From the IMG/VR virus record IMGVR_UViG_2737471848_000025: DNA of 4,135 nt. One strand, given 5' to 3'. Numbering within the stretch: position 1 is the stretch's first letter; each line of letters opens with the position of its first letter. The notes beneath the pieces are model-generated. The model saw nothing but the letters and a program-made list of their open reading frames with translations, ran no database searches and was not told the DNA's origin. This DNA comes from a virus. Lineage: Duplodnaviria; Heunggongvirae; Uroviricota; Caudoviricetes. The translations under genes and the position numbers were made by a program. Positions 1,545 to 2,157 of the stretch are shown here, piece by piece.

Positions 1545-2074
1545 GCACTATCACAAGAGAATGGCTGCAGCAGACTATCAACGATTATGAAAGCGTTCGT
1601 GATGAGCTTCCTTTCGGGCTTGATGATTACCAGGGGAATATCCTGGCTGCCCTGCGTATCGCACTGGCATCGCTGGAAGCAGAGCCGGTGGCGTGGAAGG
1701 TAACATTCACGCAAATTGACCGTGAATATAACACGTTCACTGGTATGTATTCTGACAAAGCAGAAGTCGAACGGTGGGTGCGTCTGCATAAAGCATGTAA
1801 TTTTCGGGCAGATATAACACCGCTTTATACCGCCAAGCCAGTGCCGGTAACTCCGGATGGTTGGATAAGCTGTAGTGATCGAATGCCGGAAAAGAACCAG
1901 AACGTACTTATTTCGGTGAATTTCGATAGTGATCTGGTTGAGCCGCTAATATGCTCCGCACGCTATACCGGAAGTACCTTTCGGCGAGGACAAGCAACGA
2001 TTAAGCCGGGTAATGGTATTGAGCAGGCAACCCACTGGATGCCGCTGCCAGAACCGCCGCAGGAGGTGAAATGA
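1541..2074 (+). CDS. DUF551-like phage protein (177 aa)
   Basis: The C-terminal region (DGWISCSDRMPEKNQNVLIS ... HWMPLPEPP) matches the motif pattern I recall for DUF551 proteins common in enterobacterial prophages. AAGGAG at 1528-1533 lies 7 nt upstream of the ATG. Start and stop both overlap neighbouring genes. Confidence 0.7.
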   Translation: MSTITREWLQQTINDYESVRDELPFGLDDYQGNILAALRIALASLEAEPVAWKVTFTQIDREYNTFTGMYSDKAEVERWVRLHKACNFRADITPLYTAKPVPVTPDGWISCSDRMPEKNQNVLISVNFDSDLVEPLICSARYTGSTFRRGQATIKPGNGIEQATHWMPLPEPPQEVK

Positions 2075-2157
2075 TGAATTGGCCTGAAGCATTCACCGCA
2101 GTTGGAGTTGCAATAGCGGTGGCATTTATTCTGTATTCGCTTTTCCGCTGGGGATAA
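2071..2157 (+). CDS. Small hydrophobic peptide, 28 aa (MMNWPEAFTAVGVAIAVAFILYSLFRWG), predicted single transmembrane helix; not in the ORF track
   Basis: ATG at 2071 overlaps the upstream TGA (2072-2074), with a second ATG at 2074. AGGAGG at 2061-2066 is 4 to 7 nt upstream. About 19 consecutive hydrophobic residues are flanked by W/P/E and R/W. Ends TAA 2155-2157, 4 nt before the next start. Confidence 0.4.
   Translation: MMNWPEAFTAVGVAIAVAFILYSLFRWG

Follow-up and report, generated by a model that had tools for sequence, protein, structure and literature searches.

A small open reading frame (ORF) at positions 2071-2157 on the + strand of a 4,135-nucleotide (nt) stretch of Caudoviricetes DNA (IMG/VR record IMGVR_UViG_2737471848_000025; this whole stretch is called the window below) is almost certainly, judging from how its sequence varies among relatives, a genuine protein-coding gene under purifying selection. 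Sequence comparison further indicates that the peptide it encodes belongs to what is a real, widespread and uncatalogued family of small membrane proteins, carried mainly by the early-left (exo-xis/ea) region of lambdoid phages. As a whole, the explanation towards which we lean on balance is that of a single-pass inner-membrane micro-protein, expressed early, that would pack against a membrane partner.

The ORF, MMNWPEAFTAVGVAIAVAFILYSLFRWG, comprises 28 codons and a TAA stop (2155-2157). As the original prediction had described, its ATG overlaps the TGA stop (2072-2074) of an upstream DUF551-domain gene (1541-2074, + strand; Pfam PF04448, E = 4e-22) in the form ATGA, and is preceded by a Shine-Dalgarno site, AGGAGG (2061-2066), that lies inside the final codons (..Q-E-V-K) of the DUF551 gene. 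The hidden Markov model (HMM) of the family matches the small-ORF frame with a score of 61.6 bits (E = 3.6e-19). There is, however, a second in-frame ATG at 2074, 7 nt from the AGGAGG as opposed to 4 nt for the ATG at 2071, and the functional start in the window is probably this second ATG, with a TGATG overlap and a product, MNWPEAF..RWG, of 27 codons plus stop (2074-2157). We consider it the likelier start because the conserved form of the family, as aligned here, has 27 residues; the subfamily of the window peptide carries an extra ATG or GTG codon before the family start. That is, the overlap on which the proposed translational coupling was based is kept among relatives (as [AG]TGA in 69 of 72 contexts; below), while the length of 28 codons that had been assigned to the peptide is likely one too many.

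The evidence for coding comes from the natural variation of the ORF. A scan of IMG/VR with a pattern that fixed only the first seven codons (ATGANNTGGCCNGARGCNTTY) gave 124 matches on viral contigs, 109 of which were ORFs of exactly 27 codons, representing 56 distinct DNA sequences and 37 distinct peptides with the consensus M-[TSNI]-WPEAF-x3-G-x-A-x-A-x-A-x3-Y-[SV]-[ILV]-[CF]-R-W-G (conserved columns G11, A13, A15, A17, Y21, R25 and W26, plus G27 in the consensus). The same pattern applied to a species-representative genome collection served as the null set (nearly all chance matches in unrelated taxa, and not a taxonomic survey); here, ORF lengths ranged from 8 to >200 codons and only 2 of the 88 distinct peptides were both 22-34 residues long and hydrophobic. 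The constant length of 27 codons, as opposed to the variable lengths of the null set, therefore places the small ORF far beyond chance. Across codons 8-27, which the pattern leaves unconstrained, entropy by codon position was 0.49, 0.30 and 0.85, and the pooled Nei-Gojobori ratio of nonsynonymous to synonymous substitution rates (dN/dS) was 0.33 in the ORF frame, with values of 0.67 and 1.88 for the alternative frames. To lessen the effect of shared ancestry, we linked the 56 sequences by a minimum spanning tree and tallied the changes on its branches, obtaining 90 synonymous changes over 16 sites and 99 nonsynonymous changes over 44 sites (omega 0.40, binomial P = 6e-10), with omega values of 0.91 and 1.40 in the other frames; the synonymous excess was thus confined to the small-ORF frame. 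Variants with insertions or deletions stayed in frame (a 2-codon deletion and a 4-codon insertion), and the substitutions preserved the hydrophobicity of the peptide.

A second scan of IMG/VR fixed the C-terminus (Y-S-x-C-R-W-G-stop) and placed no constraint on the N-terminus. In 69 of the 72 unique contexts recovered in this way, codon -27 was an ATG or GTG, in each case within [AG]TGA, and in 64 of these the TGA terminated an open frame of 50 codons or more lying upstream; variants of the WPEAF motif were limited to WPEAL, WPDAI, WSEAF and RPEAF. At least four contiguous nt of AGGAGGT were found 5-11 nt before the start in 33/34 distinct upstream contexts. The pattern by which the original prediction had proposed to check the ORF is accordingly what we observed, with frame, length, start, Shine-Dalgarno site and hydrophobicity kept while synonymous sites vary (omega 0.33-0.40).

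These data bear directly on the possibility that there is no independent gene at all, and that the ORF arises by chance in an otherwise conserved spacer or is a programmed -1 frameshift extension of the upstream gene, which we regard as hardly credible. It is true that, in the window, no stop interrupts the frame over the roughly 16 codons that precede the ATG and that gene callers sometimes give extended versions of 40-87 residues, but neither a conserved spacer nor a frameshift extension accounts for third-position variation and a synonymous excess in the small-ORF frame only, or for a conserved start codon and Shine-Dalgarno site. A programmed frameshift was rejected, since no X-XXY-YYZ slippery site was seen on manual reading of the varied sequences before the ATG and some relatives have a stop codon just before the start, at a distance of 0-2 codons; no structured RNA was found there either. 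An RNA element or a separate transcription unit was rejected as well: there was no Rfam match in the window at E <= 1, a consensus scan of positions 1500-2900 gave no promoter-like or terminator-like site on either strand (weak or read-through transcription could escape such a scan), and the predicted RNA fold was weaker than that of shuffled sequences (z = +1.59).

That the product is a single-transmembrane peptide, as first proposed, agrees with two kinds of prediction. Residues 7-25 (AFTAVGVAIAVAFILYSLF; 2089-2145, + strand) have a 19-residue Kyte-Doolittle mean of 2.28, the usual threshold for transmembrane segments being about 1.6, and the AlphaFold2 model is a single continuous helix from W4 to R26 (mean predicted local distance difference test score, pLDDT, of 87). 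At 27-28 residues and with one predicted transmembrane helix, the peptide is of the kind defined as small inner-membrane proteins (i.e., up to 50 residues with one such helix); its helix carries aromatic residues on both flanks and contains the conserved small residues G-x-A-x-A-x-A. On these models, insertion of the peptide into the membrane is likely. The positive-inside rule would place the short, acidic end (WPEAF) on the periplasmic side and the R-W-G end on the cytoplasmic side, and the more basic C-termini of distant relatives (..AKR, ..SRRNP and ..MVLR) agree with a C-terminus-inside topology.

The genes around the small ORF vary across relatives far more than the ORF itself. Upstream genes end in at least three unrelated ways, namely, DUF551 (..PLPEPPQEV[NRK]Q), ..YLxRNGLISxEDVLR and ..YAENDLKNIEQKVNQ, and a Pfam domain was found in the DUF551 type only; many of the upstream proteins nonetheless share an Ea22-like N-terminal module (..IALASLEAEPVAW..) despite their differing C-termini. 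Downstream, the window has a DUF4222 gene (2162-2404, + strand; Pfam PF13973, E = 9e-16) that starts 4 nt past the small-ORF stop, 933W has a spacer of about 150 nt followed by mok/hok, and ArgO145 has a convergent toxin-antitoxin pair; other downstream neighbors include a KilA-N gene, an 80-residue acidic protein and a second small transmembrane ORF of 49 residues. The homologues in 933W, ArgO145, Av-05 and phi467 each have an ATGA start overlapping the stop of a different upstream gene, and each is unannotated. In most cases the gene is the last of the ead/Ea22 array in the exo-xis/ea region; it follows replication genes in one phage and stands among same-strand small hypothetical genes in virulent myoviruses. 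With upstream ends that are unrelated and downstream genes that are varied, the conserved unit is therefore the Shine-Dalgarno site plus the ORF. As a side observation, the second single-transmembrane ORF lies directly 3' of the peptide gene in the MNW/MIW..YVICRWG subfamily (L009, L012, L023, L038, L069 and L101), where it encodes 49 residues (VGVKTFAGINTKGGNMSDDISLAMEGALAVIAVVGVYCLVVFLMDRLGN), shares 4-10 nt with the end of the peptide gene and has no Pfam match.

This variability also weighs on two readings in which the peptide serves its neighbors. In one, the peptide would be a membrane anchor, or a subunit, for the upstream ead/Ea22-like or DUF551 protein, and the overlap would ensure that both are made and assembled jointly. 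The overlap of the start with the upstream stop in 69/72 contexts and the Ea22-like N-terminal module shared by most upstream neighbors are what a tether of this type would lead one to expect, but the upstream C-terminal domains are mutually unrelated, with about 3 residues predicted on the cytoplasmic side and about 6 on the periplasmic side there is little surface for a soluble partner, and no natural fusion of the peptide with an upstream protein was found (longer calls being gene-caller extensions or frameshift products). We therefore judge a tether improbable. In the other reading, only the act of translation would matter, keeping ribosomes on the message between DUF551 and DUF4222 against Rho-dependent polarity, with the peptide itself being functionless. 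In the window, the small ORF does fill exactly the 87-nt gap between the two genes, and the DUF4222 start lies 4 nt past its stop with an AGGA against the ATG. However, the amino-acid sequence is under purifying selection with hydrophobicity preserved by the substitutions, and most relatives have about 150 nt of non-coding DNA or convergent genes next, leaving nothing to couple to; a bridge without a functional peptide is very unlikely for these two reasons. A more limited role of this type forms part of the reading that we favor. Only AGGA directly abuts the DUF4222 ATG (2155-2164), so DUF4222 translation may depend on ribosomes terminating at the small ORF, and in the window the translation of the latter would probably also deliver ribosomes to the DUF4222 start.

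Searches of reference collections returned little for the family. Up to five members gave no significant match in Pfam, PHROGs, NCBIfam, PADLOC or the PDB but only sub-threshold hydrophobic noise, the best score being for the KdpF model TIGR02115 (14.7 bits vs. a cut-off of 26.85); PADLOC gave neither a defence/exclusion nor a toxin match for the five members, and PHROGs nothing significant for the peptide. A HMMER scan of 1.84 billion proteins recovered 14 short relatives, with no informative fusion among them, and a 45-residue extended call (P0004) retrieved three homologous proteins only. The family HMM found no homologue in lambda from int to N (27.5-35.7 kb), in K-12 Rac or in e14. Lambda orf28 (L323 6772-6858; lambda 34271-34357, - strand), annotated as 28 residues just upstream of ral, was considered as a relative and rejected, its sequence (MEEEFEEFEEHPQDVMEQYQDYPYDYDY) being highly acidic, tyrosine-rich and unrelated to the peptide. 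Full-text literature searches gave nothing relevant on the WPEAF motif, and a survey that modelled the exo-xis proteins makes no mention of a transmembrane ORF. The closest description of this kind of object is that of the Entero67K intergenic microproteins, among which hydrophobic small ORFs abutting or overlapping a neighbor by 1-4 nt are common (PMC11188072); the peptide gene is likewise short, hydrophobic and conserved, and overlaps an annotated neighbor by 1-4 nt. The peptide itself did not turn up in those portions of the Enterobacteriaceae microproteome supplements covered here (PMC11188072).

In terms of function, the most useful comparison is with small inner-membrane regulators such as KdpF (29 residues), AcrZ (49 residues), MgtS (31 residues) and PmrR (29 residues), which are of similar size and also consist of one hydrophobic helix with aromatic residues at both interfaces. 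These regulators are chromosomal rather than phage genes, and they presumably act by binding a larger membrane protein. The peptide shows no homology to them (TIGR02115 is the model cited above) and, unlike them, has no partner gene beside its ORF. Our best guess, by analogy, is that the peptide works like KdpF, AcrZ or MgtS and modulates a host inner-membrane protein; that it is a partner-binding modulator of this type rather than a toxin or a tether is a suggestion we make with somewhat less than even confidence.

Alternatively, the peptide could be a membrane-damaging toxin, similar to type I toxins or holins, that depolarises or permeabilises the inner membrane and thereby aids early lytic host killing or shut-off. 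A very short, strongly hydrophobic single helix whose small-xxx-small motifs favor self-association is in line with this possibility, and so is the silence of the operon in lysogens, which would make a toxic product tolerable. The gene also adjoins hok/sok in 933W-type phages, and the Hok/Gef toxins (e.g., hokW, about 150 nt downstream of the 933W homologue) are, similar to the peptide, small single-pass membrane peptides of the same prophages. Nonetheless, BLASTP gave no alignment of the peptide to HokW, and neither Pfam nor PADLOC gave a toxin match. Hok is twice as long and has a periplasmic domain that the peptide lacks. In further contrast to Hok, no Sok-like antisense RNA or mok-like leader ORF was found, nor, within 1500-2900, a promoter-like site on either strand, and the peptide gene is an internal cistron of an early operon. 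Further, the strong Shine-Dalgarno site and tight coupling predict high early expression, whereas an early membrane collapse would harm the phage, and up to seven copies per genome are maintained. Hence, we view a toxin of this type as unlikely.

The functional analogies of the original prediction were not supported, that with Kil-like proteins least of all. Lambda Kil and Rac KilR share with the peptide the feature of being small early-left operon products directed at the host. The target of lambda Kil is FtsZ (PMC11323111); its sequence lacks a hydrophobic transmembrane stretch and it is not a membrane peptide, whereas the peptide studied here is predicted to be embedded in the membrane, which argues against a soluble, FtsZ-type action. 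No alignment of the peptide with lambda Kil was found by BLASTP at E <= 100, nor any match of the family HMM in lambda 27.5-35.7 kb or in Rac, and the gene is located in the ea/exo-xis region by xis and not, as Kil, beside gam and cIII. Lacking both a membrane nature and similarity, Kil is a poor comparison. Superinfection excluders were also named at first. T4 Imm and Sp, HK97 gp15 and SieB are inner-membrane proteins but larger, mostly with at least two membrane helices, and the T4 proteins are made early. The early expression of T4 Imm and Sp fits the presence of the peptide in virulent Vequintavirinae. As the consensus scan of 1500-2900 gave no sigma-70-like site, expression of the peptide in a repressed lysogen from a promoter of its own is not expected, save for weak or read-through transcription that such a scan could miss.

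The mechanism that we favor can be outlined as follows. The peptide would be made from the early-left (exo-xis/ea) transcript, early after infection or induction, its membership in this transcript following from the lack of any promoter-like site of its own in the scan described above, and its translation would be coupled by termination-reinitiation to that of the ead/Ea22-like or DUF551 gene before it. Start/stop overlaps of the ATGA and TGATG form are those from which such coupling is expected. Work by Huber et al. in 2019 (PMC6728339) reportedly deals with coupling of this type. Once in the membrane, the small-residue faces of the helix (G11, A13, A15 and A17 form two small-xxx-small pairs) may pack against a host inner-membrane protein or against the peptide itself, and this packing would change a membrane function to the benefit of the phage, candidate targets being a transporter, a DNA-entry channel, or a membrane protease or insertase.

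It is important to note that several observations weigh against this view or limit how far it can be taken. Conservation around the helix is not significantly asymmetric (P = 0.12), which makes the idea of a defined packing face weak, and we therefore claim no specific interaction face. No partner emerged from sequence or context, as the neighbors vary, nor was the peptide found fused to any known domain. The charge bias that would set the topology is small in the core family (E5 vs. R25), and truncation or loss of the start codon is seen in a few copies. The ribosome-profiling screen of small genes in E. coli O157:H7 Sakai, whose phage VT1-Sakai encodes the identical peptide, excluded ORFs of <30 residues, and the peptide is not in the supplements of that study. 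Finally, expression in the present genome may be abnormal due to an insertion sequence upstream, IS100, which is described further below.

The family is both common and broadly distributed. Relatives of the 87-nt sequence were found in 1,555 of 5,426 complete E. coli genomes (~29%), at 2,838 places (110 of them on plasmids) and with up to seven copies per genome. A tblastn search with the commonest variant matched 90 phage records and 180 plasmid records, the latter from E. coli (154), Salmonella (25) and Klebsiella (1); 174 of these 180 are non-mobilizable, and most of the examples listed measure about 90-105 kb, which fits phage-plasmids. Among phage genomes, tblastn revealed an identical peptide in VT1-Sakai, YYZ-2008, BP-4795, JLK-2012, phi467 and a series of phages encoding Shiga toxin (Stx) 1a, and relatives at 48-70% identity in 933W, VT2-Sakai, Min27, ArgO145 and the virulent Vequintavirinae Av-05 and TH18. 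That the last two phages carry the gene suggests that it acts during infection and not solely in lysogeny. In Av-05 (L005 842-1584) and TH18 (L255 671-1284), an Ea22-like or 'EaA' gene and the membrane peptide form a coupled pair; the arrangement, as read from the sequences, implies exchange of this module between temperate lambdoid and virulent phages.

More distant candidates suggest an even wider range. Among the IMG/VR matches outside the core family, 6 of 11 distinct peptides have the form 'M-x-WPEAF + hydrophobic helix' with 24-34 residues, as opposed to 2/88 in the null set (Fisher P = 1e-5), and these candidate members come from viral contigs of 40-66% guanine-plus-cytosine (GC) content. 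For instance, a prophage of 59% GC (L090, about 6955-11289) has a 29-residue 'MSWPEAF + transmembrane' ORF that follows a DUF551-like fragment and stands one gene ahead of an HTH_17 excisionase plus a likely integrase (the first 200 residues of which gave no Pfam match), that is, in the same position as in the window. The DUF551-like fragment of this prophage is fused to a DnaJ-type CxxCxGxG zinc-finger segment. These findings are suggestive of an ea-region module and a peptide family that extend beyond the enterobacteria. It is intriguing, if doubtful at present, to think of 'M-x-WPEAF + transmembrane helix' as a widespread class of phage early effectors that dock onto one conserved machine of the host inner membrane; the dock could be a DNA-entry channel or transporter, FtsH or YidC, and the effect could be on the exclusion of competing phages or on the lysis-lysogeny outcome that is attributed to exo-xis.

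As for its genomic setting, the window comes from a lambdoid prophage and covers the end of the early-left operon nearest the integrase, with all genes on the + strand; it is 100% identical to the chromosome of E. coli OkiPb01684 (RefSeq NZ_AP042519.1). The gene order in RefSeq is DUF5405, DUF2737, two ead/Ea22-like genes (the first labelled a pseudogene), DUF551, DUF4222, a 44-residue hypothetical gene, xisR and integrase, followed by the host genes mlrA and yohO. The location of the integrase next to mlrA (yehV) and yohO is what we take to be the classic Stx1-phage integration site. The two ead/Ea22-like genes (425-883 and 870-1544) are tandem paralogues with similar N-termini, and the first, which the NCBI Prokaryotic Genome Annotation Pipeline (PGAP) marks as an incomplete pseudogene, is an intact 152-codon ORF in the window. 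IS100 (istA/istB; L001 111-1912) is found directly upstream of position 1 of the window, before the DUF5405 gene where the window begins; on the integrase side (L001 6116-6984), mlrA (yehV) and yohO come next. The early-left operon of the present prophage is thus probably cut off from pL and, with IS100 directly upstream of the operon, the window copy may be poorly or abnormally expressed. This caveat concerns one copy, and the family-level conclusions are independent of it.

The small ORF is unannotated in NZ_AP042519.1 and in every other public record that we inspected, in agreement with the original prediction that it would be missed for its length. The usual floor of gene callers is 90 nt, and a gene of 84-87 nt falls below it, which is the probable cause. 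The exact peptide appears in GenBank solely as 'hypothetical protein' or 'bacteriophage protein', in a few annotations not made by PGAP, while PGAP names contig-edge fragments of the peptide frame (e.g., GGESMTWPEAF..; P0003, P0016 and P0021) 'DUF551 domain-containing protein, partial'. A DUF551 identity of the peptide was rejected, as the peptide has no PF04448 match and only the upstream gene does, so these fragment labels are mis-assigned. Similarly, 121-residue DUF551 proteins that share the 90%-identity cluster of the peptide were rejected as relatives; their sequences do not contain the peptide, and the shared cluster is therefore a clustering artefact.

In conclusion, a gene present in about 29% of complete E. 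coli genomes is omitted by standard NCBI annotation in the records inspected, including those of 933W, VT1-Sakai and VT2-Sakai, and the PGAP label 'DUF551, partial' on fragments of its frame needs correction. The peptide represents a tractable candidate for the study of small proteins: its motif is defined, its ribosome-binding site is strong, and natural variants of it are numerous. When the exo-xis/ea region of lambda and Stx phages is deleted or overexpressed, lysogenisation and the induction of the prophage are altered (PMC3824215, PMC10789677), and a membrane peptide that has so far gone uncounted could contribute to the exo-xis phenotypes that are now credited to its annotated neighbors.

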